Origin: Candidatus Sigynarchaeum calidifontis
GTDB lineage: Archaea; Asgardarchaeota; Lokiarchaeia; Sigyniarchaeales; Sigyniarchaeaceae
Length of the DNA stretch: 31,996 nt
Assembly (NCBI GenBank): GCA_030587475.2
Contig: JAUQYZ020000009.1
Location: 1-31,996 of the forward strand
Direction: 5' to 3'
Shown: piece by piece, positions 2,356-30,883 of the stretch
Layout of the letters: each line of letters begins with the position of its first letter
How positions within the stretch are numbered: the stretch's first letter is position 1
Notes under the pieces: model-generated
Database searches by the model: none
Seen by the model: only the letters and a program-made list of their open reading frames with translations
Told to the model about the DNA's origin: nothing
Made by a program: the position numbers and the translations under genes

Positions 2356-3690
2356 TCATTTTGATGATTGAGACTCCACCTTCCACGGATTTTCTGCTGC
2401 CCACTTGTACAAGTGGTGAAATATCCAATCTATCATTTGACAGCCTTGACATTGTTCCTTGAGACTTGAAATATAACTTATTAATCGACCTTGGCAATAT
2501 TGCGTGAATCCTTCCTTGAGTTGGCCTATCGTTCTTGAATCCACGCCATCCACGGTCAAGAACCCGTGTACCTTGGCCCACATCAAGAACAAGTAATAAA
2601 GGAACGTCAAGACAATAAAGCAATACTGTCCATTTAGTTCTCGCCACTTGCATCCATGTAGGTCGAGGTCCTGGTTCATGTCCCGGTATAACGTCTCGAT
2701 CGTCCATCTAAGTGCATAAATCGCCAAGATCGTGGCGGCATCCCAAGCCAGGTTGCTCGCCACGAAAACCCGGAACTTCCGGCCGGCGGCGGTAGTGACC
2801 TTTTCTGCGTCATCGGTTTCATTATGTTCAGGTCTTGGCTTCGTGCAGTCGATGAACACAGCTACATGAAACCCGATCTTCGGGATAAATACCTTCCGCG
2901 TTGCAGTCAAGTATTTCCGAACGACCTTCGTCTTTGGATTGGTCACGACCGTTTCTTTAAACTCTTTCGGGGGAATAGTGTTGAATAAGGCTTCCAGTGA
3001 ATACTTCTTTCGCTCTAAATCGACGTTCCAGTTTCGCTTGGGTCGAGACACGTAATCTCGCTTGAGCTGCTTGAGCACGGTCACGTTTTCCTTTGTCATG
3101 AAGAAACTATCCATGACAACGATGCGAGGCGCGCCGGGCAGTTGGCACACGGCCGCAAACAACGCCCGGGCGATTTCATTTTTCTCCTTGAAAACGGCCT
3201 CGGCACCACGCGCTTGTAACTCTTCGAGACGACGATAGAACGTGAAATCGACCGGATATTCCACACCCTTGCGATAATAGTGGACGGAGATCATCGAGTG
3301 CCCGAGAATGCGCTTCCTTTCGGTCGTCGAATGGAACCAGCTTACGCCTTCCATGCCCTCACTCGAGTGCGGGATGATGTGCTCGTCAAGTACAAGAATC
3401 CCGTCTTCCCGCATTTTCAACGCGGGATCGTCTTGGATGTGCCCGATCGTTTCCCGATATAACCCTGGCATCCCGGGCGCTATCTCATGGATGCCCCGGT
3501 AGAAGCGCGCCTTGCTCTCGCCCGCCACGACCTCGGCTTGAACTCGATTCACCGACGTGCAAGAGCTCAAGATCTTGCCCATGACCAACGCCGTCACGAG
3601 GCGTGCTGGGATTTCCTCGGGATCCCAGGTTCGATTGACGAATTTCCGCAAGAAATCATTAACCAGCTCGTGGGATTCGAGGTATTTCAT
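2356..3690 (-). CDS. DDE transposase (IS701/IS4-like)
   Basis: LVLDEHIIPH (D1), VVMDSFF (D2), YALRWTIETLYRDMNQDLDL (Y-x2-RW-x-IE signature); bounded by the TIRs. Confidence 0.9.
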   Translation of the reverse strand: MKYLESHELVNDFLRKFVNRTWDPEEIPARLVTALVMGKILSSCTSVNRVQAEVVAGESKARFYRGIHEIAPGMPGLYRETIGHIQDDPALKMREDGILVLDEHIIPHSSEGMEGVSWFHSTTERKRILGHSMISVHYYRKGVEYPVDFTFYRRLEELQARGAEAVFKEKNEIARALFAAVCQLPGAPRIVVMDSFFMTKENVTVLKQLKRDYVSRPKRNWNVDLERKKYSLEALFNTIPPKEFKETVVTNPKTKVVRKYLTATRKVFIPKIGFHVAVFIDCTKPRPEHNETDDAEKVTTAAGRKFRVFVASNLAWDAATILAIYALRWTIETLYRDMNQDLDLHGCKWRELNGQYCFIVLTFLYYLFLMWAKVHGFLTVDGVDSRTIGQLKEGFTQYCQGRLISYISSLKEQCQGCQMIDWIFHHLYKWAAENPWKVESQSSK

Positions 3691-8461: not shown

Positions 8462-10438
8462 TCATGGCATCGGCGCACGCAACCAGGCCAGGTTGAATCG
8501 GTAGTGCAAATGACTGGAGATCAAGTGTATGATGCCATCCGGCGACTGCACGGCGGCTAAATAACCCGCGGGTTCAGCGTGCGTGGCATCCATCGTGAAA
8601 GACTTGATGAAATCCGCAGATGGAAGCACTTTCCCCTTTGTATCCCCGTCAGATACGAGTCGCTTGCACGTCCACGATTTTCCCTCGTCAAACGAGAGCG
8701 CCGAAAACATCCCGTGAATGGTTCGTGGTTTTCCCGCGGCGTCGACGATTTCAATCCCCGTTACGTCGGTTCCATCCCTTTTACGTTCGCCCGTGAAACC
8801 GACAAAGAGCAGGGGGCCTTCCCGAAGGCGCATCAAGACAAGTCTCTGCCCGCCGCCGATCGGCGGGAACGGGCTGGGCGAGTAGGTCCACGTCTCGCCG
8901 CCGTCCGCGGAGCGGCTCGCGGGCATCCTGCCATCGATCGTGTCTCCCCTGCCGAACGCGAGCAACGAGCCGTCGGACAATTCGACGACGCTCGCGTGGA
9001 TGCCGGCGATCCATGCCCCTGAATTGCCGGCCTTGAAGACCGGAAATGGCTTCCCAAGGCCAAGATCGCGCCATGTCTTCCCGCCGTCCTTGCTCGCGTG
9101 AATCGCGGTGCCGCCACCACCCCCGGGATTCGCGTCGCACAGCTGCAGCAGCGTCCCGTCCCGGAGCTGCCTCGTGCATGCGATGACCTGGTTCCGCGTG
9201 CGGTGCATGAACCCTTCGTGTTCGTCATTTATCACGCGAGGCTTGCTCCACGTCGCCCCGTTGTCGGTGCTCTCGCGCATGACCATGGCCAAGTGCGTCC
9301 ATGTCTGGGCTTCCTCGATGCCGTTGAAATGCAAGATGCGCTTGCCGTCGTTGAAAAGCGAGGAGCCGGTCATGTTTCGATCCGCTGCTTTGAAGAAGAG
9401 GGACGCGGGTTCCCACGCGACATGTCCTTGGCGCAGCCGGGAGGACAAGATATTCATCTCCCGGCCTCGCTCGGTCGTCGTGTTGAACCAGCACGCGATC
9501 ACGTCCCCGTTGTTGCACCAGGTGATCGCCGGGCAATGGCTATGCTTGTAGAAGGGTACGAGTGGCTCGTCATCAGTAACTTCCGGTTCGATGACGTACG
9601 GTACCGGGTCGGCGAAAAACGGCTTGTCCATGTCCACGGCAGGGTGCCAGTCATGACATGATTGCTGAACACCTCGGAAAAATGCTGGGGGGCGGGGCGG
9701 GTCCAGTAACTGCCCGTTAGGCATGGCCGCCTGCACGACGCGAAACCCGATGAACCGGGACTTGTCTTCGGGCAGCGCTGCCAGTCGGTTCGCCGAGCGG
9801 AGGTACCACGCGAGGGTCTCGTAGCTGCCGCCCCTCGTGACCTTGAAGTCCCCATGCTTGTATCCCGCCGGGTCGACTTGCACGCCCGCGACATACGGCC
9901 CATACCAATCCAGGCACCATTCCTCCACCAGCCCGTGCATGTCGTGCAAGCCGAACGGGTTCGCCGGCCTTCTCCGGGTGGCGACCGTGTCGCCACCATC
10001 GTCGCTGGATATGGCTGCCTTCCAATCATCGGGATTGTCGATGCGGTGTTCGGGGGGCAAGCTGTCTCCCGTCCAGTACTGCGTCGTCGTTCCCGCGCGG
10101 CAAGCATATTCCCATTCCGCCTCGGTCGGAAGCCTGTATGGTTTGCCCTCCTTCTCGGAGAGCCACTTGCAGAAAGCCATTGCATCGTTCCAAGACACGA
10201 AAACGACCGCTGCATCGTCCGTTTCACTCACGTACGCGATGCCACGATATCGCTCGTGTTCTTTTCGAAACATCTCGAATTGTGCATTTGTCACGGGCGA
10301 ATCGGCCATGAAAAAAGGATTGCTGATGCAAACCTCGTGCACGGGCACCTCGTCCCAGTCTCCATCCTTCTGGCCCATCAAGAACTTCCCGGCAGGAACG
10401 GAAACAAGCGTCATGCCGATCGAGTTTTCAATTTTCAT
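8462..10438 (-). CDS. FGE-sulfatase (SUMF1/EgtB-like) domain fused to BNR/Asp-box sialidase-like beta-propeller
   Basis: RLPTEAEWEYACRAG, NPFGLHDMHG, RGGSY, IGFRV; Asp-boxes STDNGATW, SKDGGKTW, SADGGETW, SFDEGKSW. Confidence 0.88.
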   Translation of the reverse strand: MKIENSIGMTLVSVPAGKFLMGQKDGDWDEVPVHEVCISNPFFMADSPVTNAQFEMFRKEHERYRGIAYVSETDDAAVVFVSWNDAMAFCKWLSEKEGKPYRLPTEAEWEYACRAGTTTQYWTGDSLPPEHRIDNPDDWKAAISSDDGGDTVATRRRPANPFGLHDMHGLVEEWCLDWYGPYVAGVQVDPAGYKHGDFKVTRGGSYETLAWYLRSANRLAALPEDKSRFIGFRVVQAAMPNGQLLDPPRPPAFFRGVQQSCHDWHPAVDMDKPFFADPVPYVIEPEVTDDEPLVPFYKHSHCPAITWCNNGDVIACWFNTTTERGREMNILSSRLRQGHVAWEPASLFFKAADRNMTGSSLFNDGKRILHFNGIEEAQTWTHLAMVMRESTDNGATWSKPRVINDEHEGFMHRTRNQVIACTRQLRDGTLLQLCDANPGGGGGTAIHASKDGGKTWRDLGLGKPFPVFKAGNSGAWIAGIHASVVELSDGSLLAFGRGDTIDGRMPASRSADGGETWTYSPSPFPPIGGGQRLVLMRLREGPLLFVGFTGERKRDGTDVTGIEIVDAAGKPRTIHGMFSALSFDEGKSWTCKRLVSDGDTKGKVLPSADFIKSFTMDATHAEPAGYLAAVQSPDGIIHLISSHLHYRFNLAWLRAPMP

Positions 10439-12720: not shown

Positions 12721-13404
12721 TTAGATCGAAGGGCTTCTCTGCGCCGGGGGCGCGGGACAAAGCCGTTTTCCAAGCTTGATGAGGGCATCGATTAGCTGGC
12801 AGACGAGATATCCGATCGCGAGCGGGATCATGTTGAGCAGGAAGATAATTAGCAAGTAATCAGGGGCCACGAAAAAGCCCATCACGGCATAGATTGATAC
12901 GATGTCGCCGGGGCGGAGCGGGTTGCTGGTGCCGAAGACGCTGGCAAGCACCTCTGGATCCACGCTCGCGAGCAGCATTCCCGCGATCAAGAAGCCGATG
13001 GCAAATGCCAGAGCCAGGATTACCGTGAAAACCAGCATCGCGTTTTTCGATGGCTTGGTCCTGCCCGTGCTGATGAAAAGCGTGATATATGCAACGATCA
13101 TGACAACGGCCGGGATCCAGGTGCCTTTGAGGAAATCGCCCGAAAAGACTTCAAAGGAGATGTTCAAGGCATTGAGGGCCCATAGAAACCCATAAACATG
13201 GCTCACCGTGACAAGGGCAGTGAGGTTCCAGCTCCAATCAAATTCCCTTTGCGTTAACGTGTCGAGCAGCTTCGGTTCCCGGGACACGCGCCACCTGAAG
13301 TAACGCGTGATGAGGGCGTTCAAGACTGCGAGGAACGCGACCATGGACACACAAAGGACGACGATGCCCGTGGTGAGATCCCCCGCGGACACTTGTTGCA
13401 TCAT
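12721..13404 (-). CDS. Integral membrane protein (about 6 TM)
   Basis: Hydrophobic segments throughout; its start overlaps the GH38 stop (ATGA at 13401-13404). Confidence 0.75.
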   Translation of the reverse strand: MMQQVSAGDLTTGIVVLCVSMVAFLAVLNALITRYFRWRVSREPKLLDTLTQREFDWSWNLTALVTVSHVYGFLWALNALNISFEVFSGDFLKGTWIPAVVMIVAYITLFISTGRTKPSKNAMLVFTVILALAFAIGFLIAGMLLASVDPEVLASVFGTSNPLRPGDIVSIYAVMGFFVAPDYLLIIFLLNMIPLAIGYLVCQLIDALIKLGKRLCPAPPAQRSPSI

Positions 13405-16400
13405 GGCTTTCTCGCACCTCCTCTGTCTTGCATGAACTTGTTCTTGATTTCACCCGTGAATTTGGACCATGCTTGTACCAAGGATTTATTCACCCGTTGC
13501 ACCCCGGCCAGAATCGGCAATTTCATCGAGGGCGTGAACACGCTGCTCCAGATCCACTTGAGAAGCGAGACCGACACCAGCGCGATGATCGCAGCCGCGC
13601 CCAGCGGGAGCACGTACCAGTACAAGACCTTGTACAGGTCCGTGTCGACAAGGGAATACAAGAAGCCGGGCAAGGTGCCGAGCTGCGACCAGTAACTCGC
13701 GGGTGCCGCGCTGACGACGAGCAGGACCGGTAAGACCGCATAGGCAGCGACCGGTGCCAAGGCCGTCCCGATGGCAGCTGCGTAAACGCGCCCCTTCATC
13801 GAGACTTGTTTCGGTAGAGCCAGCACGATGATGAAGGCCAGCGTGCCGACGATCATGGTCCCGGTGAAAAACCCGGGAACGAAGAAATCGAACAAGTTGT
13901 TACGGATCGTGTGTGTCCAGGGAGACCACGCGCCCCCGCCAGGAACATCATAGCCCGGATTGAGGAACTCGATGGCCGGGGAACCAAAATATCCCTTGGA
14001 CACGAGCCAGAACGAGATCCACGTGCCCATCGCTAGCATCGGCACGAGGATCGGTATGGCGACCTGGTACACGATAAACCGGGCGATCTTTTGCCCCGTC
14101 CCGATCCTTTCATTGACGGGATCGGTTAGCGGATCGGTTCCCGCCAATCTCGCCTCCTGTTTCAATCTAACGGCGGTCGCCAGCAAACACAAGATGAAGA
14201 TGGCGAGCACGACCGCGAGCACGGCGCCCGTTCCCAGCTCGGCATCCGTGATTGCCGGCCTGTCCAGCACGGTCCACGCGCGGCTTACTTGGATGTTCCC
14301 CGATGTATCCACTGCACAAACGCGGAAGTAAGCGGGACGAGACACGATGGCGTCGAGGGCTACCTCCCCGCGATACTTGCCCGGGCTGGCTTGCGACATC
14401 GGAATCCTCGTCCACGATTGCCCCTCGAAGGTCTCGTTGAAGCAATACTCGATCCAAGCCGCTTGGATGGCCGAGCCTTCTGTATCGGTGATATCCGCTT
14501 CCAAAACGATCCGGTCGCCCGAGAAGGCGTCTACCCGGCGGAGGGCACCTATCCGGGGCCCGTTGATGTCGAGGGCTCGCGGTCTCATGAGCACGGATTG
14601 CCACCCGTAGGGGCCGATCGTCGTGTTGAAGCCCGCGAGATCCGAGGCGATGCTTCCCGTGGCATCGTTCGAGAAGGTGGAATTGAAGGCGTCATCGTGG
14701 TTGAGACTCGTCGCGATGCTCGCCGGGATGGTCGTGCCAGCGGCGTTGACGAGGAGCGCGACGACCTCGTTCTCTCTCCATGCCTTCCGGAGGCCAAGGG
14801 ACAGGACGCGAGAGTCGTTTACCGAGAAGAAACTCTCGCGTTTCGGCAAGGTACCGGCGTGCTGCTCGCCCGACACGAACGGCGTTATCGGGAAGTTCCA
14901 CGCGTAGCCTAGCTTTTCCCGGGTCACCTGGTTGACCTCGCCCGCGATCGACGGGTCGAAAGTCGTGATGCAATACGTGAAGTTAAAATACCCGTGATCC
15001 GTGGACGTGACGTCATCGGGCGGGACGGGGCTCGTGTTGTTCGAGGATCGCACGAGGATGCCCTCGAGCTGGTTGCCCACGCGCCTGTATCCGTGGATGC
15101 CGTAGTTTATCCAGCTCGCCGCGCGGGAGCTGTTTTGCACGGAAACGTGATACAAGGCCGGAAAGTAAACACCATCTTCATCATGTGTGGTGAAGCCAAA
15201 CGGAGCGTCGTACTGGTGGCTTGCTCCCGTGACGTTGAACGCGAACCGGATCGCCATGGCCGTCCCGTTTTGCGGCTGGAAATCCATTTCGTCCTTGAAC
15301 TCGACCCGTTTCATGCCATCCGCGAGGATGATCGACCGGTTGTATTCCGAACCCGCGATTGCATAGCACAACTTCACGTGAATGCGGGTCGGGCCACGTT
15401 CTTCCACGACGATTTGCGGCACGAGAGCCGACACGTTGTACTGGATTCCACGAAAATCATAGATCCACGCGTTTCCGATCTCGTTATACGCGAGCAATTG
15501 CCACGGATCTATCGTCCCGTTAAGCACGTTCCAACCAAGATCCTTGTCACGAATCCTTAACTCGTTCTTGCCCGTCGCGTTGAATGTAATCGTGTAATGC
15601 GTGTTGTCAATCGTGAAGCCCGTGGACGTGAATGACCCGGAGAGGGACGTCGTGTTTGCCTGGTACGCGGCGAGCGGCTGTAAAAAGTACGTCTTGTACC
15701 CGGTTGCCGGCACCGTGGCGATGAACGAGACCGAAAACTTGTTCAAGAACTGGCTTCCGGTCGTCGCGTTCTTGACCGGGCGTACCTGGGACGGGATGAT
15801 GCTGCCCGTGTCCGGGTCGATGACCTCGATGTCGACGGTGGAGTTTCGCACTGTCACCGGGAACGCGGCCATGGACACGGGGACGTCGACCGGCTCGGTA
15901 CGCTCCCAGCCCATGGGATTGAAGAGCACGACGGGACGCGCCGTCGCGTTCGGAAAGGTCGTGTCGATGTTGTCGACCATGATGCCGAGAATGCTCGCCT
16001 GGAGATCCTGCAAGACCGGCATTTCCTGGTAGAACACGCGCATGTTGTCCTCGTAGACTGCTTGCCGGGACGTCCCCGTGATGGAATCGTGGTGGTGGCT
16101 GGCGCACGCCTTGTACCATGCTTGCTCGAACGATGGTTCCGGGTAGGTGAACGTCGGGAATGCTTGCTTCGCGATGGTCGCGAAGGTCTCGAAGGTGGTC
16201 AGCTTGTGCTCGAAGAACCGGGTGTAGTTCTTCATGTTCACGCGGCTCGTGTAATAGCCCGAAAACACGGGGTTCAAGTCCCGTCCGGGAGTGATGGACG
16301 TGTGCACGACGCCGCCCGCCGCGAGTAACGGGCCGAGGCGGTCGAAGAACATCTTCGGCGTCCCGATCTTGCAGACGTAGCCCGTCTTGTCCGCCTCCTG

Positions 16401-17288
16401 GGCGTTCCACGCATCGACAAAGCCGGGGAGCTCCCAGTTCGGGTTCGAGAAATCGGAGCCATAGAACACCATCATGTCGCCTTGATCGTTGCTCAAATCG
16501 CCGGGATTGACAGTGTGCTGGAACGGGTTGTTGGTGGGCCGGATCCACTCGTGGATTTTCCGTATGAACTCGTTGACATTGGCGAAATCAGTGGCAGTAA
16601 CTTGTCCATCGTTGCCAAAGCCATGATTATAATGCGGCATCTTGTAACCATGAATCCGGGAGCCATCCACGCCGGTCCAATTGAAAACACCATCCCACAT
16701 GCCGATGCCCGTCCTGCAGATGATGCAGTACTTCAAGCCGAGCTTGTTGTAAAGTGTGGGCGTCCCGGCTCCGAAACCGAAGACGTCGATTTCCCAGCCG
16801 GTGGTTATCGTCGCGCCCAGCACGTCCCGCGCCCACTTGATACCGATGGCGGCGTCTTGAACCAATCCAATTTCACCAGCAATATTGACCTCTGGCTGGG
16901 ACACGAAGCCCTGGACGATCTCGAGGCGCCCTTCCTTGATGAATCGCAAGATATCCTGCTGGTAATCCGGGTAATGCTCCCAGAAGTACTTGATGGCCAC
17001 TACCTGGTCGAGCACGAAGCACATGTCCTCTTGGACACGCATTTGGTCAAGAGCATTGCGCACGTTCGCCGACCATCGTTCTGCTTCGGCATGCCATGGA
17101 TCGAGCCACCACGGGTCGAAATGCGTGTGCGGGACGATGAAAACGACCTTGTATCCTGCATTTATACCGCGATCGGCGCTTCCCATGTAGTTGAACCACG
17201 TGGAAACGCCCGCGAACGCGGTGAGGCCGCAAACGAGCAAAACAAAGACTGCCTGGTGTTTCGTGAACTTGATATGCCGCGGTTTCAT
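13401..17288 (-). CDS. Membrane-anchored GH38 alpha-mannosidase-family glycoside hydrolase
   Basis: PHTHFDPWW (Zn-binding HxD), IDVFG (nucleophile), GYYTSR, HHDSITGT, LFNPMGWERT; N-terminal TM/signal segment and about 5 C-terminal TM helices. Confidence 0.9.
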   Translation of the reverse strand: MKPRHIKFTKHQAVFVLLVCGLTAFAGVSTWFNYMGSADRGINAGYKVVFIVPHTHFDPWWLDPWHAEAERWSANVRNALDQMRVQEDMCFVLDQVVAIKYFWEHYPDYQQDILRFIKEGRLEIVQGFVSQPEVNIAGEIGLVQDAAIGIKWARDVLGATITTGWEIDVFGFGAGTPTLYNKLGLKYCIICRTGIGMWDGVFNWTGVDGSRIHGYKMPHYNHGFGNDGQVTATDFANVNEFIRKIHEWIRPTNNPFQHTVNPGDLSNDQGDMMVFYGSDFSNPNWELPGFVDAWNAQEADKTGYVCKIGTPKMFFDRLGPLLAAGGVVHTSITPGRDLNPVFSGYYTSRVNMKNYTRFFEHKLTTFETFATIAKQAFPTFTYPEPSFEQAWYKACASHHHDSITGTSRQAVYEDNMRVFYQEMPVLQDLQASILGIMVDNIDTTFPNATARPVVLFNPMGWERTEPVDVPVSMAAFPVTVRNSTVDIEVIDPDTGSIIPSQVRPVKNATTGSQFLNKFSVSFIATVPATGYKTYFLQPLAAYQANTTSLSGSFTSTGFTIDNTHYTITFNATGKNELRIRDKDLGWNVLNGTIDPWQLLAYNEIGNAWIYDFRGIQYNVSALVPQIVVEERGPTRIHVKLCYAIAGSEYNRSIILADGMKRVEFKDEMDFQPQNGTAMAIRFAFNVTGASHQYDAPFGFTTHDEDGVYFPALYHVSVQNSSRAASWINYGIHGYRRVGNQLEGILVRSSNNTSPVPPDDVTSTDHGYFNFTYCITTFDPSIAGEVNQVTREKLGYAWNFPITPFVSGEQHAGTLPKRESFFSVNDSRVLSLGLRKAWRENEVVALLVNAAGTTIPASIATSLNHDDAFNSTFSNDATGSIASDLAGFNTTIGPYGWQSVLMRPRALDINGPRIGALRRVDAFSGDRIVLEADITDTEGSAIQAAWIEYCFNETFEGQSWTRIPMSQASPGKYRGEVALDAIVSRPAYFRVCAVDTSGNIQVSRAWTVLDRPAITDAELGTGAVLAVVLAIFILCLLATAVRLKQEARLAGTDPLTDPVNERIGTGQKIARFIVYQVAIPILVPMLAMGTWISFWLVSKGYFGSPAIEFLNPGYDVPGGGAWSPWTHTIRNNLFDFFVPGFFTGTMIVGTLAFIIVLALPKQVSMKGRVYAAAIGTALAPVAAYAVLPVLLVVSAAPASYWSQLGTLPGFLYSLVDTDLYKVLYWYVLPLGAAAIIALVSVSLLKWIWSSVFTPSMKLPILAGVQRVNKSLVQAWSKFTGEIKNKFMQDRGGARKP

Positions 17289-18886: not shown

Positions 18887-20194
18887 TCACGCCAGCTGGA
18901 TCTTGATATAATTCTTTTGGAGTTCCAGCATCTCGTCGAGTATCTGTTTTGCTTGCCACGATGTCTCGACAACCGGATCCGCGAGAAGAGCTTGCAGTGC
19001 GATTGATTTGGATTTCTGAAGGATCGCCTCGACCACGAGATCTTGAACCGATGCTTGCGTTCGCAGCAAGGCCGCGAGCCCCTTCGGGTACTCGCCATAC
19101 GCGATGCCCTTGACTCCTTGCCGATTCACGATGGCGGGACACTCGACCACGAGATCTTGTGGCAAGTTCGAATACACGCCCGTGTTCGGCACGTTCACGG
19201 ACGGCTCGATGTAATTCTTGTCCGTGACGATGCCCTCGATGATCGGGACCGCGCGCTCCTCGTCAGGCACGACGCACGACGCGCCCTTTCCCTTCTCGAT
19301 GCGACGGACCAGTCTCTTGTGATCCGCCATTAACATGTCCTCGTAGGTCCTCAAGAAGCGCCGGATCGCGGGTATATCCGCCCGCTCCCATGCCCAATGG
19401 ACGTATTCCCCGAAATGGCTGTCCGGCGTGTAGGGGATGTAGCCGTAGGTTTCCAGGACGAAGGCGTTCAAGGTCAGCCCGTCGTAGGCCTTGAGCGATC
19501 GCAAGAACGCGGGCCCATCTCGACGGATTGCCGGGTACAAGTCGGCCCCAGACGCCTTGTCCTTGATATCCAGGATAACGCCGAAGTGGTTCAGCCCGCC
19601 CGAGACGATGTCGAGGTCATTCTTTGCTTTCCCCGTTATCTTCTCGATGTACGGCAAGAAATGCTCGTACTCGTGGCATAACCCCACGAATCTCAAGGAG
19701 GGAAACTTTCTCTTGATAGCAAGGCAGATCCGGCTCATCGGGTTCGAGAAATTGATGAAGAACGCGTCGGGACAGATTTTCACGACGTCGGCACAGATAT
19801 CGAGGATGGGCGGGATGACGCGGATCGAGTGGAACAAGCCACCAGGCCCGCCGTTCTCCCCCGTGACTTGCTTGTTCCCGAATTGCAAGGGAACTCGGTA
19901 ATCCATGTCCAGGAGCATGAACCGGGGCGGCACCTCGATCGAATTGATGACGAAGGTCGCGCCCTTCAGTGCGTCCCCCCTGTCGAGCGTGGACTCGATG
20001 GCGAAATCGAGCTTTCGCTCGTGAACCGCTTCCGTGCAAGCCCTGCTGACGAGATCGAGGGCCTCCTTGTTGATGTCGTGGAGGCAGATCGTCGCCCCCT
20101 TCAGCACCTCGCTCGCGAGGATACTGCCGACCGTCCCGAGCCCGAACTGGAGCGATCCCGCACCTACCAGCACGATCTTTTCCTTCCTTCCCAT
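18887..20194 (-). CDS. GH4 NAD+-dependent alpha-galactosidase/alpha-glucosidase (MelA-like)
   Basis: VGAGSLQF, GENGGPGGLF, NFSNPM, GLCHE, GLNHF, DSHFGEY, VVECPA, QALLADP. Confidence 0.92.
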   Translation of the reverse strand: MGRKEKIVLVGAGSLQFGLGTVGSILASEVLKGATICLHDINKEALDLVSRACTEAVHERKLDFAIESTLDRGDALKGATFVINSIEVPPRFMLLDMDYRVPLQFGNKQVTGENGGPGGLFHSIRVIPPILDICADVVKICPDAFFINFSNPMSRICLAIKRKFPSLRFVGLCHEYEHFLPYIEKITGKAKNDLDIVSGGLNHFGVILDIKDKASGADLYPAIRRDGPAFLRSLKAYDGLTLNAFVLETYGYIPYTPDSHFGEYVHWAWERADIPAIRRFLRTYEDMLMADHKRLVRRIEKGKGASCVVPDEERAVPIIEGIVTDKNYIEPSVNVPNTGVYSNLPQDLVVECPAIVNRQGVKGIAYGEYPKGLAALLRTQASVQDLVVEAILQKSKSIALQALLADPVVETSWQAKQILDEMLELQKNYIKIQLA

Positions 20195-24217: not shown

Positions 24218-24802
24218 GTGTCGAGGGAGCAACGCGGGATAAATCCCGAATATACATTTAAAATAGTCGTTGGGGGCGCTGGTGGCGTGGGAAAAACCAC
24301 GCTTCTCCATAGGTTCTTGCATAATGTATTCAAGGCGGACACGAGCTTGACCGTCGGCGTCACGTTCAAGACAAAGGAACTCACCCGCAACGGTCAGAAA
24401 GTAACGCTGGCGTTGTGGGATCTCGGCGGCCAAGACCGCTTCCGCTTTTTGCAGCCGACATTTTGCCAAGGAGCCCGAGCAGGCATCGTTTTCTTCGACA
24501 TGAGCCGGTTCGGCACCATGGAGCAAGTAAAGGATTGGGTTGCAATGTTCCGCCAGTACGCCTACCCTCATATCCCGATCATCCTTGGTGGAACCAAGCT
24601 CGACATCGTCGATCCACGAACGCTCCGCGATGCCACGGATTACGCAAAAGAGATGGTTGATAAGCTCGGGCTAACCGGCTTCGTGCCCACGTCAGCGAAA
24701 AGCGGGGAAAATGTCGAGGAGATCATAACGACTCTCGTTGACATGCTCGTGGCGCAAGCATTGAGCTCGAAAGACACCGCCGTCCCGACGAGCGCGCCTT
24801 GA
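24218..24802 (+). CDS. Rab-like small GTPase (Ras superfamily, Asgard type)
   Basis: G1 GAGGVGKT, G2 T in TVGVTF, G3 WDLGGQ, G4 TKLD, G5 TSAK; RabF-like segments; no C-terminal Cys prenylation motif. Confidence 0.93.
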   Translation: MSREQRGINPEYTFKIVVGGAGGVGKTTLLHRFLHNVFKADTSLTVGVTFKTKELTRNGQKVTLALWDLGGQDRFRFLQPTFCQGARAGIVFFDMSRFGTMEQVKDWVAMFRQYAYPHIPIILGGTKLDIVDPRTLRDATDYAKEMVDKLGLTGFVPTSAKSGENVEEIITTLVDMLVAQALSSKDTAVPTSAP

Positions 24803-25127
24803 AATCACTCCTTCCTTGTTAGCGCCTTCCGTTTCAACGTAAATCGAAGGTTGATCACGACCAGCCGTCTGTATTTCTTGTTACATCTTGTAAGGAAAGG
24901 CGTGATGGCGGCATCAAAAATGCAATTTCCGCATCAAAGGCCTTCAGATTGAAAAAAAATTGCGATAATAAACGTTGGGATGAACGAACGTTCAAATCGA
25001 GCCGCAGATGTTGTATTTCTTTCAAATAATCTTTAAATCCACACGCCATATGAGGATGTCATAAATCGATGGTCTTGCACGGGTGTCGGAGGCACCCGGC
25101 GTTTTCGATGACCCCCTTGAATAGAAC

Positions 25128-26468
25128 GTGATGCCCATTCCCGCGGACAACATCCAGGTTTTTTGGGGCTGCTTCATTCCTCAGCGGTTCCCTTGGCTAG
25201 AGAAGAGCATCCGGAGCGTCTTGACGGCCTTGAAGATCCCGTTTTCGGAGAACGGCAGGTTCACGTGCTGCCCGGAACCTTCATACAAGAACATCGACGA
25301 GAATGCATGGTTGCTCACGGCGGGCCGCAACCTCGCCGTCGCCGAGCAGAACGGTCGCCGCGACATCATCACGCCATGCAACGGCTGCTTCGAAACGCTC
25401 AAGGCCCTCAAGATCATGATGCGGGAGGACGACAAGGTCAAGAAAAAGGTCAATGACTTGCTGGCGACCCTGCATCCCCCCCTGGCATTCCACGACACGA
25501 TCGACGTCTTGCATTTCGCCGACTATTTCTGGCGGATAAAGGAAACCATCAAGGACGGCATCAAGCGGCCGCTGGAAGATCTCAAGGTCGCGGTGCACTA
25601 CGGCTGCCACCTCATCAGGCCGAGCAGGGAGATCCAGCTCGAGAATCCGTTCGAGCCAAAGATCCTCGACGAGCTCGTGAAGATCGTCGGTGCCAAGTCC
25701 GTGCAATACACGGACAAGCTGCTCTGCTGCGGTGGTTCCTACGAGCGAGCTGGCCAGAAGGAGGCCAGCCTCAACACGGTCCAGCGTAAATTGCAACACA
25801 TGAAGGAGGCGGGCGCGCAAGTCGTGCTCGTTTCTTGCCCGAATTGCTATTTACAATACGAGATGGAGCAAGCCAGCTTGCAAAAGCTGGACGTGGACGT
25901 GCACCTCCCCGTGTTCTTCATAACCGACTTGATCGGGCTTGCCCTTGGTCTTTCGCCAGAAGAACTCGGTATCGACATGCACGTGATCGACCCCGGCCCT
26001 GCCTTGCAAGCACTGGGCAAGATAATGAAAACGCGGGAGGCGGTCGTCGTCAAGGATTTCGACATCGACGAGATCGAGCGATGCCTCGCGTGCGGCGCGT
26101 GCAAGGACGACTGCCCGAGCTGCAAGAATGGTACCATGGATCCCCCTGCCCTCTTAAAAAAAGTCATTTCGGGTCAATTGGAAGACGTGTTGAAAGACCC
26201 GAGCATTTGGGCGTGCCTGGACTGTTATACATGCACAGAACTCTGTTCTTTACGATTAGGCTGGCATGATGTACTCAAGAAACTTCGGAACATGGCGGCG
26301 GAGAAAGGATACATCACGAAAGGATTCGAACGACAATCTGATACCTTTTCGAAGTTGCTGCGGGTCATTCCGCCATCCAAGGCCAAGCGAAAGCAACTGG
26401 GCCTGCCAGATATGCCCGGTCCAGACGCGAATGACTTGAAAGAAAAGTTGAATGAAACAAACGGATGA
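25128..26468 (+). CDS. Heterodisulfide reductase HdrB-HdrC fusion protein
   Basis: Two CCG domains (WGC..TCCPEP..PCNGC; HYGCH..LCCGG..SCPNC) followed by CLACGACKDDCP and WACLDCYTCTELC (2x[4Fe-4S], HdrC-like). Confidence 0.9.
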   Translation: MMPIPADNIQVFWGCFIPQRFPWLEKSIRSVLTALKIPFSENGRFTCCPEPSYKNIDENAWLLTAGRNLAVAEQNGRRDIITPCNGCFETLKALKIMMREDDKVKKKVNDLLATLHPPLAFHDTIDVLHFADYFWRIKETIKDGIKRPLEDLKVAVHYGCHLIRPSREIQLENPFEPKILDELVKIVGAKSVQYTDKLLCCGGSYERAGQKEASLNTVQRKLQHMKEAGAQVVLVSCPNCYLQYEMEQASLQKLDVDVHLPVFFITDLIGLALGLSPEELGIDMHVIDPGPALQALGKIMKTREAVVVKDFDIDEIERCLACGACKDDCPSCKNGTMDPPALLKKVISGQLEDVLKDPSIWACLDCYTCTELCSLRLGWHDVLKKLRNMAAEKGYITKGFERQSDTFSKLLRVIPPSKAKRKQLGLPDMPGPDANDLKEKLNETNG

Positions 26469-27727
26469 AGCGGAGGAGACATCGTTTGAATTGGACGAAT
26501 TATACCCATCACGAAGGAAAGCTCAAGGACGACAAGGTATTCGACGGCTGCGGCATCTCGGCATTCATCAACACCGACGGGCGCGTCGAGAACGGCTCCC
26601 GGATCACGGACATGCTCACTTGCTTGCAAGACCGGGAGAATGGGCTCGGTGCCGGGTTCGCGGTCTATGGCTGTTTCCCTGATCGGAAGGACGAGTACGC
26701 GATGCAAGTCATCATGGAAGATATGGAGACCCAGCAGCGGGTAAAGGAATACTTCAAGAGCAAGGGCACGGTCGTGTTCGACGAGAAAATCCAGGTCAAG
26801 GAATCAATGACCTTTTCCCGGCAGCCGGTCTTGTGGCGGTATTTCTTCAAGCCACCTACCAGCATCCCGCGGGAGGAACACGACGAGTACGTCATGAAGG
26901 TGCACATGGGCCTCAACTTGTCGTTCAGCCGGAAGGCGTTCATGATGTCCGGGGGCAAGAACATGGCGTGCTTCAAGGGAAACGGCTGGAGTTACGAGAT
27001 CGCCGAGTATTACCGCATCGCTGATCTTTACAAGGGATACATGTGGCTCGGCCATTCCCGGTTCCCGACGAACACGCCTGGTTCGTGGTTCGGCGCGCAT
27101 CCCTTCAGCCTGCTGTCCTGGGCTTGCATTCACAATGGCGAGATCACGTCGTATGGCACCAACAAGCGCTATCTCGAAGCATTCGGTTACCACTGCTTGC
27201 TAGGCACCGACACGGAGGTCATCGCTTACTTGTTCGACCAGCTCGTCCGCCGGCACGGCATTCCCGTGCCGATCGCGGCGCTCGCGTTCAACCCGCCGCT
27301 CTACGACGTGATCGACAAGATGCCCCGGGAGCAACAACTCGTCATGAAAAACATCCGCATGACCTACCGGTCTTGCTTGCTCAACGGGCCGTTCTCCATC
27401 GTCGTCGGTTCCGAGCTGGACGGCAAGCCAGCCATGATCGGCCTCACCGACAGGAAAAAGCTGCGCCCCCAGCTCATCGGCGTTTCCGCCGATGAAAAGA
27501 CCTTCTACATCAGCTCCGAGGAGGCGTCATTCCAGCGCCTTGCAATATCGGAAGTGAACCACGCGGATATCACGTCGGTCTGGGCGCCCCACGCGGGGAC
27601 GCCATTCATCGCCAGGCTTGGCGATGGGCTCGTTCGCAAGGGAACAGAGAAGCCATTCGAGGGTATCAAGATATCGATCAAGGAGGAGGCGCCCGTCATG
27701 CCGCCGTGCGTGCTCGGCGCGAGATAA
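26465..27727 (+). CDS. Glutamate synthase amidotransferase subunit (class II GATase, GltB domain 1)
   Basis: Propeptide followed by CGI, then RENGLGAGF, HSRFPTNT, AHPF, HNGEI, TDTEV, NGPF, DRKKLRP. Alternative start TTG 26486 after GGAGG. Confidence 0.9.
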   Translation: MKRRRHRLNWTNYTHHEGKLKDDKVFDGCGISAFINTDGRVENGSRITDMLTCLQDRENGLGAGFAVYGCFPDRKDEYAMQVIMEDMETQQRVKEYFKSKGTVVFDEKIQVKESMTFSRQPVLWRYFFKPPTSIPREEHDEYVMKVHMGLNLSFSRKAFMMSGGKNMACFKGNGWSYEIAEYYRIADLYKGYMWLGHSRFPTNTPGSWFGAHPFSLLSWACIHNGEITSYGTNKRYLEAFGYHCLLGTDTEVIAYLFDQLVRRHGIPVPIAALAFNPPLYDVIDKMPREQQLVMKNIRMTYRSCLLNGPFSIVVGSELDGKPAMIGLTDRKKLRPQLIGVSADEKTFYISSEEASFQRLAISEVNHADITSVWAPHAGTPFIARLGDGLVRKGTEKPFEGIKISIKEEAPVMPPCVLGAR

Positions 27728-27748
27728 ACACGTGGAGCGTGAACGTCC

Positions 27749-29269
27749 ATGAGCATACAACACAAAGTCTTCCCCAAATTTCGCGTGTGCGTGGATCAAG
27801 GCCGGTGCAAGAAATGCACGAGATGCGTCAACGCATGCTCTTTCGGCGTGCTATCATTCAATGGCGAGCGCGTCGTCGCGGATAACGACAAGTGCGTCGA
27901 TTGCATGCGGTGTGCCGTGTTTTGCCCAGCCGAGGCCATCCATATCGAAGATGATCCCATGAGCTACAACCCGCACGGGACGTACACCGAGCGCATCCGC
28001 AAGATCGACTGGTACCAGGCATCGACGGGCGGCGTCCTCCTCGCGTCGACGGGTACCGATATCAACTACCCGGTCATTTTCGATGATATATTACTCGATG
28101 CGTGTCAGGTCACGAATCCCTCCATCGACCCGCTCCGCGAACCTGTGGAGACCAAGGTGTTCCTGGGCTCCAAGCCATACAAGCTCGATTTCCAAACCGC
28201 GCCCGGCGATGAAAACGACGTGACGATGAAAACCCGTTTCCCGCCCAACTTCGAGATGTCCATGCCTATCATGGTCGGCCACATGAGCCTCGGCTCGATC
28301 AGTTTCAACGCGTGCATGTCCATTTACAAGGCAGTCTCCGAGCTCGGGATCGTCGCCGGTTCGGGCGAGGGTGGCCTCAACGAAGCGTTCTATCCATACA
28401 AGAACCACCTCATCACCGAGATCGCGTCGGGGCGCTTCGGGGTCGACATCAACTACCTGCACGGCGTCGCCGGTCTGGAGATCAAGATCGGCCAGGGCGC
28501 CAAGCCAGGCCACGGCGGGCACCTGCCCGGCGAGAAGGTCACGAGTCTCATCAGCGAAACGCGCATGATCCCCAAGTTCTCGGACGCGCTGTCGCCATAC
28601 CCGCACCACGACATCTACAGCATCGAGGACCTCCAGCAGCTCATCTCGGCGCTCAAGGAGGCGACCCGGTACCTGATCCCGATCGGCGTGAAGATCGCCG
28701 CGGTTCACAACGTGGCGCCGATCGCGTCGGGTATCGTGCGCGCGGGCGCCGATTTCCTCACGATCGACGGCTTCCGCGGCGGGACGGGGGCTGCCCCGCG
28801 CATCATCCGCGACCACGTCGGCATCCCCATCGAGGTCGCCATCGCGGCGGTCGACGAGCGGCTCCGCGCCGAGGGCATCAGGGAAAAGGTTACCGTGATC
28901 GCCGGTGGCTCCATCCGGTACTCGGCCGATCTCATCAAAGCCATCGCGCTCGGCGCCGACATCTGCATGGTCGGCATGCCCGTGCTACTCGCGCTCGGCT
29001 GTCGCTTCTGCCAGCAATGCCACACCGGCAACTGCGCGTGGGGCATCGCGACGCAGCGGCCCGACCTGGCCAAGCGCCTCGACGTCGACGTGTCTGTCCA
29101 GCGCATCAAGAATTTATTCCACGCCTGGAACGAGGAACTCAAGGAGGTCCTGGGAGCCATGGGCATCGACTCGGTCGAGTCCTTGCGGTCGAACAGGGAT
29201 CGATTGCGGTACATGGGCCCGAACCCGCACATCGCCGAGGTTCTTGGTATCAAGCACGTGGGGGAATGA
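27749..29269 (+). CDS. Archaeal-type glutamate synthase FMN-binding subunit with N-terminal 2x[4Fe-4S] ferredoxin domain (GltB domain 2)
   Basis: CKKCTRCVNAC, CVDCMRCAVFCP, MSLGSIS, GSGEGG, ASGRFGV, EIKIGQGAKPGHGGHLPGEKV, PHHDIYSIEDL, GGTGAAP, CRFCQQCHTGNCAWGIAT. Confidence 0.95.
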   Translation: MSIQHKVFPKFRVCVDQGRCKKCTRCVNACSFGVLSFNGERVVADNDKCVDCMRCAVFCPAEAIHIEDDPMSYNPHGTYTERIRKIDWYQASTGGVLLASTGTDINYPVIFDDILLDACQVTNPSIDPLREPVETKVFLGSKPYKLDFQTAPGDENDVTMKTRFPPNFEMSMPIMVGHMSLGSISFNACMSIYKAVSELGIVAGSGEGGLNEAFYPYKNHLITEIASGRFGVDINYLHGVAGLEIKIGQGAKPGHGGHLPGEKVTSLISETRMIPKFSDALSPYPHHDIYSIEDLQQLISALKEATRYLIPIGVKIAAVHNVAPIASGIVRAGADFLTIDGFRGGTGAAPRIIRDHVGIPIEVAIAAVDERLRAEGIREKVTVIAGGSIRYSADLIKAIALGADICMVGMPVLLALGCRFCQQCHTGNCAWGIATQRPDLAKRLDVDVSVQRIKNLFHAWNEELKEVLGAMGIDSVESLRSNRDRLRYMGPNPHIAEVLGIKHVGE

Positions 29270-29276
29270 GGCTATC

Positions 29277-30113
29277 ATGCAGAAAACCGTGGACAACATT
29301 CACGTGGATGCATCGAGCAAGATCGTCACCATCGATGCAACAATCAACAAGACCCCGCTTCGGTACCAGTTCTTAAACGAGCAAATCCACCGCGTGATCG
29401 ATGATGGCTACAAGAACATCGTGATAAAGAACGTCGCGGGCCAGCGGTTCATCGGGGCCGCGCTGGTAGGCGACATCAACATCAAGATACATGGCACCCC
29501 GGGCAACGATCTCGGGATCTTCATGGACGGGCCCTCGATCGAGGTGTTCGGGAACGTGGAGGACCAGGCCGGCAACACGATGAACGGCGGCAAGATCGTC
29601 ATCCACGGCTCTGCCCGGGATGTCATCGGCTTGTCTGCCCGCGGCGGCACGATCTACGTCCGGGGAGATGGCGGGTACCGGTGCGGCGTGCACATCAAGC
29701 AATACCAGAGCAAGCGGCCCGTGTTCGTGTTCGGTGGCCGGGTTCGCGACTTTTTTGGCGAGTACATGGCCGGCGGGATACTCGTCGCGCTCGGCTTGAA
29801 TATAAACGAGGACGGGTCCTTTAACGTGATAAAGGAGTACCCGGTTGCCGGGCGCTCGATCGGGACGGGCATCCACGGGGGCAAGATCATCCTCGCGCGG
29901 AAAGCGGAGGAGATCCCGTGCGATTTCCTCGGCACCGGGACAAAGGTTGCCGACCTCGAGGAAGATGACATCCAGGACATCAAGCCCATACTCGCCGACT
30001 TTTGCAAGGCGTTTGGCATCGACGCGGCCAGGATCTTGAAGTTAGATTTTAGCAAGGTCATCCCGCTGAGCAAGCGACCCTTCGCGCACAATTACTGTTC
30101 CAAGATGGTCTGA
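29277..30113 (+). CDS. Glutamate synthase GXGXG beta-helix subunit (GltB domain 3)
   Basis: NVAGQRFIG, GTPGNDLG, GNTMNGG, GDGGYRCG, FFGEYMAGG, GTGIHGG. ATG 29277 is 7 nt after the FMN-subunit stop. Confidence 0.9.
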   Translation: MQKTVDNIHVDASSKIVTIDATINKTPLRYQFLNEQIHRVIDDGYKNIVIKNVAGQRFIGAALVGDINIKIHGTPGNDLGIFMDGPSIEVFGNVEDQAGNTMNGGKIVIHGSARDVIGLSARGGTIYVRGDGGYRCGVHIKQYQSKRPVFVFGGRVRDFFGEYMAGGILVALGLNINEDGSFNVIKEYPVAGRSIGTGIHGGKIILARKAEEIPCDFLGTGTKVADLEEDDIQDIKPILADFCKAFGIDAARILKLDFSKVIPLSKRPFAHNYCSKMV

Positions 30114-30293
30114 TACCATCTTTTTCCATCTAGGTCTGGCCAGCGTTGGTTCCCTTTGCGCTCGAGACGCTCGGGCTATCGAGAACAGCGGGTTGAACGC
30201 CTCGCCCGAAGGCTTGGGATAATATCTTTAGGGACAAATGACATATGAAGGCATTTTTATTTATGCTTTCGATAGAAATCGCAGTGATCGAAA

Positions 30294-30506
30294 ATGATCG
30301 ATAACGAGATTGCCCGCAAGGTCAAGGATCTACCCGGCGCGTCCAAGCGAAAGGTGTTGGCATACATTGAATCGCTGGAAAAACAAAATGATGCAAAAAA
30401 GGGGCAGAAACGAACACTATCGTTTGCCTGGGAAGGGTGTTTGGCGAGTTTAGCGAAAAGTAAAACCGCGATAGATTTGCAACACGCCATTCTGGAGTGG
30501 CATTGA
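30294..30506 (+). CDS. Putative antitoxin (DUF2281-like)
   Basis: LP...KRKVLAYIESL...LSFAWEGCL...AIDLQHAILEW; stop overlaps the PIN gene start. Confidence 0.72.
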   Translation: MIDNEIARKVKDLPGASKRKVLAYIESLEKQNDAKKGQKRTLSFAWEGCLASLAKSKTAIDLQHAILEWH

Positions 30507-30883
30507 TGTTCCTTCTCGATACCAACGTGTTTTTGGAAATTCTGCTGGGCCAGACCAAGGCAGCATCTTGCAAGAAATTCATAATCGATAACGAAGGCGA
30601 TCTCATCATTTCAGATTACACGATCCACTCGATCGGGATTATCTTGTTCAAGTCGGCGCGCCAGGCGGATTTTAAAACATTCCTCGATGATGTTCGACCG
30701 GCATTTACTATAGCAACTGTTCCCGCCACACATCTCGAGGAAGTCATCGATGCGAGCAAGATTTACGGCTTGGATTTTGATGATGCATATCAAGTCGTGG
30801 TTGCAAAAGCCAGCGGGGCCTCGATCGTTACCATGGACCAACATTTTTCAAAAGTGAAGAACATTCCCGTGATTTTCTTATAA
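30506..30883 (+). CDS. PIN-domain (VapC-like) toxin
   Basis: MFLLDTNVFLE, LDFDDAYQ, IVTMDQHF; TGATG overlap with the upstream antitoxin. Confidence 0.9.
   Translation: MFLLDTNVFLEILLGQTKAASCKKFIIDNEGDLIISDYTIHSIGIILFKSARQADFKTFLDDVRPAFTIATVPATHLEEVIDASKIYGLDFDDAYQVVVAKASGASIVTMDQHFSKVKNIPVIFL

Follow-up and report, generated by a model that had tools for sequence, protein, structure and literature searches.

An HdrB-HdrC fusion heads a split glutamate synthase operon in an Asgard archaeon and probably marks a thiol-linked electron feed into nitrogen assimilation

Textbook glutamate synthases (GOGATs) take their electrons either from NAD(P)H via GltD or from ferredoxin, and to our knowledge the donor of the widespread split, archaeal-type glutamate synthase has never been established. 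In methanogens, the cytoplasmic fumarate reductase flavoenzyme of TfrAB is driven by a module resembling HdrB and HdrC, subunits of heterodisulfide reductase (Hdr), which oxidizes the thiols coenzyme M (CoM) and coenzyme B (CoB). Here we describe an operon from Candidatus Sigynarchaeum calidifontis in which a gene for an HdrB-HdrC fusion (HdrBC) precedes three glutamate synthase genes. The window, that is, the whole stretch of DNA analysed, is an entire contig of 31,996 bp (JAUQYZ020000009.1) from a metagenome-assembled genome (MAG) of 5.0 Mb, 269 contigs and 89% completeness. Its nearest protein relatives, 62-89% identical, come from MAGs of Sigynarchaeota, Lokiarchaeia, Promethearchaeota and Hodarchaeota, so the host is an Asgard archaeon. 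The operon is a real and probably new variant of glutamate synthase, and its predicted donor is a thiol; a search of the literature returned no description of an Hdr-linked form. Taken as a whole, a four-gene split GOGAT whose HdrBC subunit is fed by a dithiol, possibly a lipoyl group, is given a probability of about one half.

The GltB-GltD enzymes (PDB 2VDC, 6S6S and 7MFM) share with the operon an N-terminal nucleophile (Ntn) amidotransferase, a flavin mononucleotide (FMN) domain with a CX5CX4C site and a GXGXG beta-helix. Unlike in GltB, these parts are split over three genes, all on the + strand. The first encodes a class-II (Ntn) glutamine amidotransferase (GATase) subunit (26465-27727) matched by the Pfam families GATase_6 and GATase_2, the latter at 41.7 bits. 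Its catalytic Cys29 (nt 26549-26551) sits behind a conserved propeptide, M.W.NYT...FDGCGI in its common form, and is invariant in 34/34 family members. The second encodes the ferredoxin-FMN subunit (27749-29269), in which an FMN-binding glutamate synthase domain (PF01645, 420 bits) is fused to an N-terminal 2x[4Fe-4S] ferredoxin domain of its own that GltB does not have (Fer4 families, residues 15-70; C20/23/26/30 and C49/52/55/59). The residues C418, C424 and C429 of the same subunit follow the CX5CX4C spacing of the 3Fe-4S ligands of GltB, with C421 as an additional cysteine, and all of these cysteines are invariant across 30 sequences. The FMN domain matched residues ~856-1170 of GltB in 7MFM, 2VDC and 6S6S at 1e-56 to 1e-58, and the solved enzymes aligned with it include both NADPH- and ferredoxin-dependent forms. 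The third gene encodes the GXGXG (beta-helix) subunit (29277-30113; PF01493, 94 bits). Read from these sequences, the trio is an archaeal-type split glutamate synthase with predicted activity, and its role in the glutamine synthetase-glutamate synthase (GS-GOGAT) pathway, as for GltB-GltD, is suggested by the glnA and amt neighbours of its relatives. A search of the genome for the three GOGAT subunits matched this operon and nothing else, which makes it the only recognisable GS-GOGAT route to glutamate in this Asgard genome; a glutamate dehydrogenase gene with a GltD-like neighbour lies on another contig (C218).

The other departure from GltB-GltD concerns the partner. No GltD (Fer4_20 plus Pyr_redox_2) adjoins the operon, and the partner position is held by the HdrBC gene (25128-26468, +), which encodes 446 aa from GTG 25128, the earliest possible start, or 445 aa from ATG 25131, the better match to the N-termini of orthologues. 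Its stop codon and the GATase start share ATGA at 26465-26468, and the two genes are, as judged from this overlap, translationally coupled; the gaps that follow measure 21 nt between the GATase and FMN genes and 7 nt between the FMN and GXGXG genes. A preliminary description of this DNA had given the same four packed genes with the same junctions, and also the absence of GltD, HdrA and hydrogenase beside them; open reading frames (ORFs) and junctions were reproduced as described, and none of the three absent components was found on the 32-kb contig.

Among split enzymes, the archaeal-type GOGAT, which includes a proposed F420-dependent form (MTH193), likewise comes in three pieces, one of them a ferredoxin-FMN subunit, and has a modular fourth gene that probably determines the donor. 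The proposed F420-dependent form differs in that its fourth gene encodes an FrhB-like 'subunit 4', the subunit put forward as the electron input of the methanogen enzyme, FGltS (PMC3087415, PMC9012536), whereas the fourth gene here encodes HdrB-HdrC. F420 dependence itself 'remains to be proven' (PMC3087415).

The fusion protein is closest to the CoB-CoM heterodisulfide reductase subunits HdrB and HdrC (PDB 5ODC, 7BKB and 8RVU), with which it shares a complete CCG pattern, the two 4Fe-4S motifs of HdrC, the fold and an identity of 33-37%. Pfam assigns two CCG domains (PF02754, 4.9e-29) and Fer4_8. The HdrB-like part (residues 9-297, nt 25152-26018) contains two CCG motifs for two non-cubane 4Fe-4S clusters, C15-X31-C47C48-X35-C84xxC87 and C160-X39-C200C201-X35-C237xxC240, both complete and both fitting CX31-39CCX35-36CXXC. 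The HdrC-like part (residues 308-445, nt 26049-26462) carries two complete CxxCxxCxxxC motifs, C319xxC322xxC325xxxC329 and C363xxC366xxC369xxxC373, whose eight cysteines are all conserved across relatives. The cysteines of both CCG domains had been described as intact, and all ten are indeed present; nine are invariant in 40 sequences, and C15 is nearly invariant in a 14-sequence alignment. Sequence matches in PDB reached 2.9e-62 with HdrB, over the full length of the HdrB part, and 8.8e-17 with HdrC. The AlphaFold2 model of HdrBC (pLDDT 88.6) was matched by Foldseek to HdrB chains with target-normalised TM-scores of 0.90-0.91 (root-mean-square deviation 2.0 A) and to HdrC chains with 0.56-0.63. 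Genuine HdrB and HdrC are the nearest proteins of solved structure, with the CCG-fold chain LutA far more distant and the NCBIfam scores against other CCG families far lower, and both sequence and model mark the HdrB part as a close relative of true HdrB.

Several features set HdrBC apart from CoB-CoM Hdr. The B part is fused in front of the C part, no HdrA, MvhD or hydrogenase gene is adjacent, the host is not a methanogen, and the reaction is likely to be thiol oxidation rather than disulfide reduction. In addition, the NCBIfam scores stay below equivalog level, with 257 bits for HdrB (TIGR03288, cut-off 345) and 80 bits for HdrC (TIGR03290, cut-off 160). Beyond the cysteines, a C-terminal motif (..P.SK.KRK.LGLP.., residues 415-427, window ~26370-26408) is conserved throughout the fused family, and its R421 does not vary among 40 sequences; this stretch may serve in docking.

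The association of HdrBC with the glutamate synthase trio extends far beyond this contig. Four independent samples document it. A genome collection yielded 54 loci with a fused HdrB-C relative; 49/49 that continue downstream carry the GATase gene next, followed by the FMN and GXGXG genes wherever the contig goes on, and the other 5/54 stop at a contig edge and are uninformative. The same gene order was found in 68/68 informative loci of a metagenome collection, where 12 loci without the unit have <=425 nt of DNA after HdrBC. Look-ups of exact proteins showed the unit in 7/7 cases, including four within the clade of the window (65-81% identity). Among 121 sampled Asgard genomes, 11 encode the fusion; ten of these have the Fer4-FMN gene ~1.2 kb away, and the eleventh has the two genes on different contigs. 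This neighbourhood survey of HdrB-C fusions beside glutamate synthase genes, suggested in the preliminary description, thus revealed linkage without exception in informative loci and across phyla. The four-gene unit recurs unchanged at >120 loci, its uncultured archaeal and bacterial carriers numbering well over a hundred, and the arrangement is by far beyond chance. Its carriers include Asgard archaea, ANME-2 archaea, Coriobacteriia, other Actinobacteria, Armatimonadota, 'Hebobacteria', deltaproteobacteria, Peptococcaceae, Thermacetogeniaceae and Sumerlaeota. The cultured Pelotomaculum thermopropionicum, checked as a possible carrier, has genes of the gltB-gltD type and lacks the four-gene unit. 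The neighbours of many related loci place the unit in nitrogen assimilation: glnA adjoins it at 17 + 16 loci and ANTAR response regulators at 9 + 14, and amt/PII genes are found there as well.

Phylogenies built for 36 loci from HdrBC and from the FMN subunit agree in their major clades and have 22/33 splits in common, with a Mantel r of 0.93 that was not reached in any of 2000 permutations (0/2000) and to which shared host ancestry contributes. A further clue to function comes from the gene that can take the place of HdrBC. A second copy of the operon in the Asgard genome G041 and the operon of another, G058, are arranged as glnA - Pyr_redox_2/Rubredoxin_C flavoprotein - GATase - FMN - GXGXG - ferredoxin, so that the gene between glnA and GATase, in the slot held elsewhere by HdrBC, encodes an NAD(P)H flavoprotein; G041 carries both operon types, one led by HdrBC and one containing the flavoprotein. 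An NAD(P)H flavoprotein in this slot fits HdrBC as an electron-input module. Owing to the exceptionless synteny, the translational coupling, the congruent trees and the flavoprotein in the same slot, HdrBC is likely to be a dedicated fourth subunit of glutamate synthase through which electrons enter, its binding being predicted. A complex prediction for the FMN subunit with HdrBC, using custom alignments, gave scores of 0.00 and 0.01, which count neither way.

The cofactor inventory makes a plausible wire, consisting of two non-cubane clusters, two HdrC clusters, two Fer4 clusters, a 3Fe/4Fe-4S cluster and FMN. In the mechanism that we propose, the pair of non-cubane 4Fe-4S clusters in the HdrB part would oxidize a dithiol to its disulfide. 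The electrons would then travel via the 4Fe-4S cluster pair in the HdrC part to the pair in the FMN subunit's ferredoxin domain. From there they would reach the 3Fe/4Fe-4S cluster and then FMN, which would reduce 2-iminoglutarate, formed from 2-oxoglutarate and the ammonia freed from glutamine at the Ntn-Cys amidotransferase. The assembly of the complex, the direction in which electrons move and the thiol that donates them are all points that we infer. Thiol chemistry at HdrBC is plausible from its cysteine pattern and modelled fold. Lipoamide has an E0' of about -290 mV and the acceptor couple of GOGAT is estimated at -70 to -100 mV; a dithiol could therefore drive the reaction. The idea resembles TfrAB in concept, in that a module like HdrB/C would serve as the thiol-oxidizing input of a flavoenzyme, and differs from it in the catalytic partner, a fumarate reductase flavoprotein there and GOGAT here; HdrBC matches TfrB in NCBIfam (NF004898) at 2.7e-21, much more weakly than it matches HdrB.

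The best candidate for the donor would be a protein-bound dihydrolipoyl group, carried by a GcvH-type or lipoyl-domain protein and recharged by lipoamide dehydrogenase (Lpd) or by the oxidation of glycine or 2-oxoacids; another thiol pair could also serve. This candidate is suggested by eight loci in genomes of Peptococcaceae, Thermacetogeniaceae and Clostridia with the order glnA - GXGXG - Lpd - free lipoyl domain - HdrBC - GATase - FMN. Their Lpd has the redox-active CLNRGC within GGTCLNRGCIPTK, and their free lipoyl domain is ~80 aa long with its lysine in ..TNKA... One metagenome locus (L139) combines Lpd with the lipoyl domain in the Peptococcaceae-type order, another (L154) has the lipoyl domain at the start of its contig, and a third (L149) includes Lpd but arranges its genes differently. 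In two more metagenome loci (L158 and L162), HdrBC-GATase-FMN-GXGXG is tightly followed on the same strand by HdrC-HdrB-HdrA/MvhD, and in L137 such a module lies one gene away from the operon. Both kinds of addition, Lpd with the lipoyl domain and HdrCBA, are disulfide-reducing, which is the activity required by a thiol/disulfide shuttle that ends at HdrBC, and in lineages that have Lpd or HdrA-HdrCB in the operon these modules would recharge the same lipoyl carrier. It is tentatively suggested that HdrBC re-oxidizes protein-bound dihydrolipoyl on GcvH or a free lipoyl domain directly, so that electrons and ammonia from glycine cleavage or 2-oxoacid oxidation would pass into glutamate, bypassing NAD(P)H and ferredoxin.

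Hdr-like CCG proteins are also found outside methanogenesis together with a lipoate-binding protein and lipoamide dehydrogenase, in the sulfur-oxidizing sHdr-LbpA system (PMC6067878, PMC11094781). The Peptococcaceae operons resemble it in co-encoding Lpd and a free lipoyl domain. The operon described here differs from it in that genes for DsrE, TusA, sulfur transferases and HdrA are all missing and the partner is glutamate synthase; in the window there is no lipoyl gene either.

Elsewhere, the host genome encodes one Lpd, one GcvH of glycine cleavage, two orphan GcvH paralogues and two LplA-type ligases. The lipoamide-dehydrogenase-like gene is split over the end of one contig (C113) and the start of another (C129), and a second Pyr_redox_2 ORF (C177) continues into an IS110-type transposase domain. 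A GcvH-HdrC-HdrB linkage in the Asgard genome G041 was considered and rejected, because a phosphoglycerate kinase gene on the opposite strand lies between and the genes are not tightly spaced; at that locus (L090), GcvH stands beside a pyridine-nucleotide disulfide oxidoreductase gene, ~2 kb from HdrC-HdrB.

Several observations weigh against a thiol-fed HdrBC subunit. The 100%-complete Asgard genome G083 has GATase-FMN-GXGXG without HdrBC, although its FMN subunit is 70% identical; ~1.2 kb of nearly ORF-free DNA occupies the HdrBC position, and no fused HdrBC was found elsewhere in that genome, so not every host needs HdrBC. In the window, in its clade and at most loci, no Lpd, lipoyl or other thiol-system gene was found beside the operon, which leaves a minority of bacterial lineages as the basis of the lipoyl link. 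GcvH occurs in 112/121 of the sampled Asgard genomes, with 1-9 copies each, and Lpd-like genes in 5/5 Asgard carriers checked; with such near-universal distribution, their presence here says little and their co-occurrence does not discriminate. Moreover, a GltD-like flavoprotein is encoded elsewhere in the genome. The genome-wide check for gltD accordingly had a mixed outcome, with none on the contig and two Fer4_20/GltD-like ORFs outside it, one adjoining the glutamate dehydrogenase gene (C218) and the other within an HdrA cluster (C175). Finally, CCG-domain proteins are also part of enzymes with no known thiol substrate, as seen in the weaker matches of HdrBC to SdhE, GlpC, GlcF and LdhH in NCBIfam and in the match to LutA. 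Regarding the proposal in the preliminary description that HdrBC is a thiol-oxidizing electron-input module, the dedicated partnership is borne out by synteny, coupling, congruent trees and the slot swap, and the thiol part draws indirect support.

Among the alternatives, one fares best. HdrBC could be a true fourth subunit that acts only as an iron-sulfur adaptor, with no thiol chemistry at its CCG clusters. It would relay to the Fer4-FMN subunit the electrons that ferredoxin or a different redox protein supplies, for instance an HdrA-type or hydrogenase module encoded elsewhere. We consider this somewhat unlikely, albeit far from negligible. The linkage evidence speaks for it equally, CCG proteins of non-thiol enzymes and the scarcity of thiol-system genes near most loci, this one included, are in its favour, and the genome encodes ~17 CCG proteins as well as HdrA-like genes. 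However, the FMN subunit already has a 2x[4Fe-4S] domain, which would make an extra wire of four clusters seem redundant; the cysteine pattern of the disulfide site and its fold are complete and far closer to true HdrB than to LutA; and an Lpd and a lipoyl protein encoded directly 5' of HdrBC at eight genome loci are hard to explain without thiols.

Less probable is a redox-sensing or regulatory subunit, in which HdrBC would be a thiol/disulfide switch that adjusts glutamate synthase to the redox state of the cell, and either ferredoxin, at the Fer4 domain, or a GltD-like protein in trans would supply the electrons. The three-gene operon of G083 would fit such a dispensable part, a GltD-like ORF does adjoin glutamate dehydrogenase on C218, and the Fer4 domain could take electrons from ferredoxin directly. 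Yet a translationally coupled first gene in >120 loci across phyla is rare for a regulator, the HdrBC tree closely tracks that of the catalytic subunit, and the slot in sister operons holds an NAD(P)H flavoprotein, which is a donor rather than a sensor.

It is very improbable that the trio is not a glutamate synthase at all but, for example, an N-methylglutamate-synthase-like enzyme or another GltB-like oxidoreductase, in which case the link to HdrBC would belong to another pathway. The modest GATase_2 score leaves some room for it, as does a locus in the Asgard genome G007 (L084, on C25) with the order HdrA/MvhD fusion - HdrC - HdrB - FrhB-like - GXGXG - Fer4/FMN and no amidotransferase, which combines a GltB-like module with a complete set of Hdr subunits. 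Against this stand the invariant Ntn cysteine, the 420-bit match of the FMN domain to GltB, the glnA, amt and ANTAR genes beside dozens of loci, and the lack of any second GOGAT in the searched genome.

Oxidation of CoM-SH and CoB-SH by HdrBC, which would tie glutamate synthesis to the heterodisulfide cycle of methanogenesis and which the preliminary description had named as one option for the thiol pair, is scarcely credible and was rejected for this organism: in spite of the ~40% identity of the HdrB part to methanogen HdrB and of a related locus (L047) from an ANME-2 archaeon, a maker of both coenzymes, the host is of Asgard lineage, neither McrA nor ComA was found in its 89%-complete genome, the carriers are mostly bacteria or Asgard archaea, and the HdrB and HdrC scores lie under the equivalog cut-offs.

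Upstream of the HdrBC gene, a TATA-box-like TTTAAAT (25032-25038, +), ~93 nt 5' of ATG 25131, is read from the sequence as a candidate archaeal promoter. It is followed by a palindrome, ATGAGGATGTCAT, at 25050-25062 and by a hairpin, CGGGTG...CACCCG and then TTTT, at 25080-25098; the region as a whole (25032-25106) may hold an operator or leader. An orthologous locus (L088) aligns with a comparable TTTAAAT box and downstream palindrome, and in an upstream alignment of 5 orthologous loci these two elements were common to that one locus, with otherwise little conservation. An oligo-T run (30121-30125, +), 8 nt past the GXGXG stop codon, would be a candidate archaeal terminator. A search of the window against Rfam gave no match.

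Directly 5' of the operon lies a gene for a Ras/Arf/Roc-family small GTPase (24218-24802, +), typical of Asgard gene content, and a small GTPase likewise precedes the operon on the nearest Lokiarchaeia contig (L086/L087). Downstream, a VapBC-like pair (30294-30883, +) consists of a 70-codon ORF (30294-30506) that overlaps the start of a PIN-domain gene (30497/30506-30883). The window also encodes, on the - strand, a DDE transposase (2356-3690), an FGE-sulfatase/BNR fusion (8462-10438), a GH38 alpha-mannosidase-like protein of 1295 aa (13401-17288) and a GH4 glycosidase (18887-20194); the glycan-degradation genes have no relation to the glutamate synthase operon.

The operon probably marks an undescribed, thiol-linked electron feed into nitrogen assimilation. 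For many uncultured anaerobes, among them Asgard archaea, ANME-2 archaea, Coriobacteriia and Peptococcaceae, the conserved Hdr-like subunit offers a concrete answer to the question of the donor. If a thiol is indeed oxidized by HdrBC, nitrogen assimilation in these organisms would be tied to a thiol/disulfide cycle, possibly that of lipoate, and the non-cubane cluster chemistry of HdrB would extend beyond methanogenesis and sulfur oxidation. Should the thiol prove to be a dihydrolipoyl group, glutamate synthase would gain a new class of donor, and both lipoate and HdrB-type non-cubane clusters a new role.

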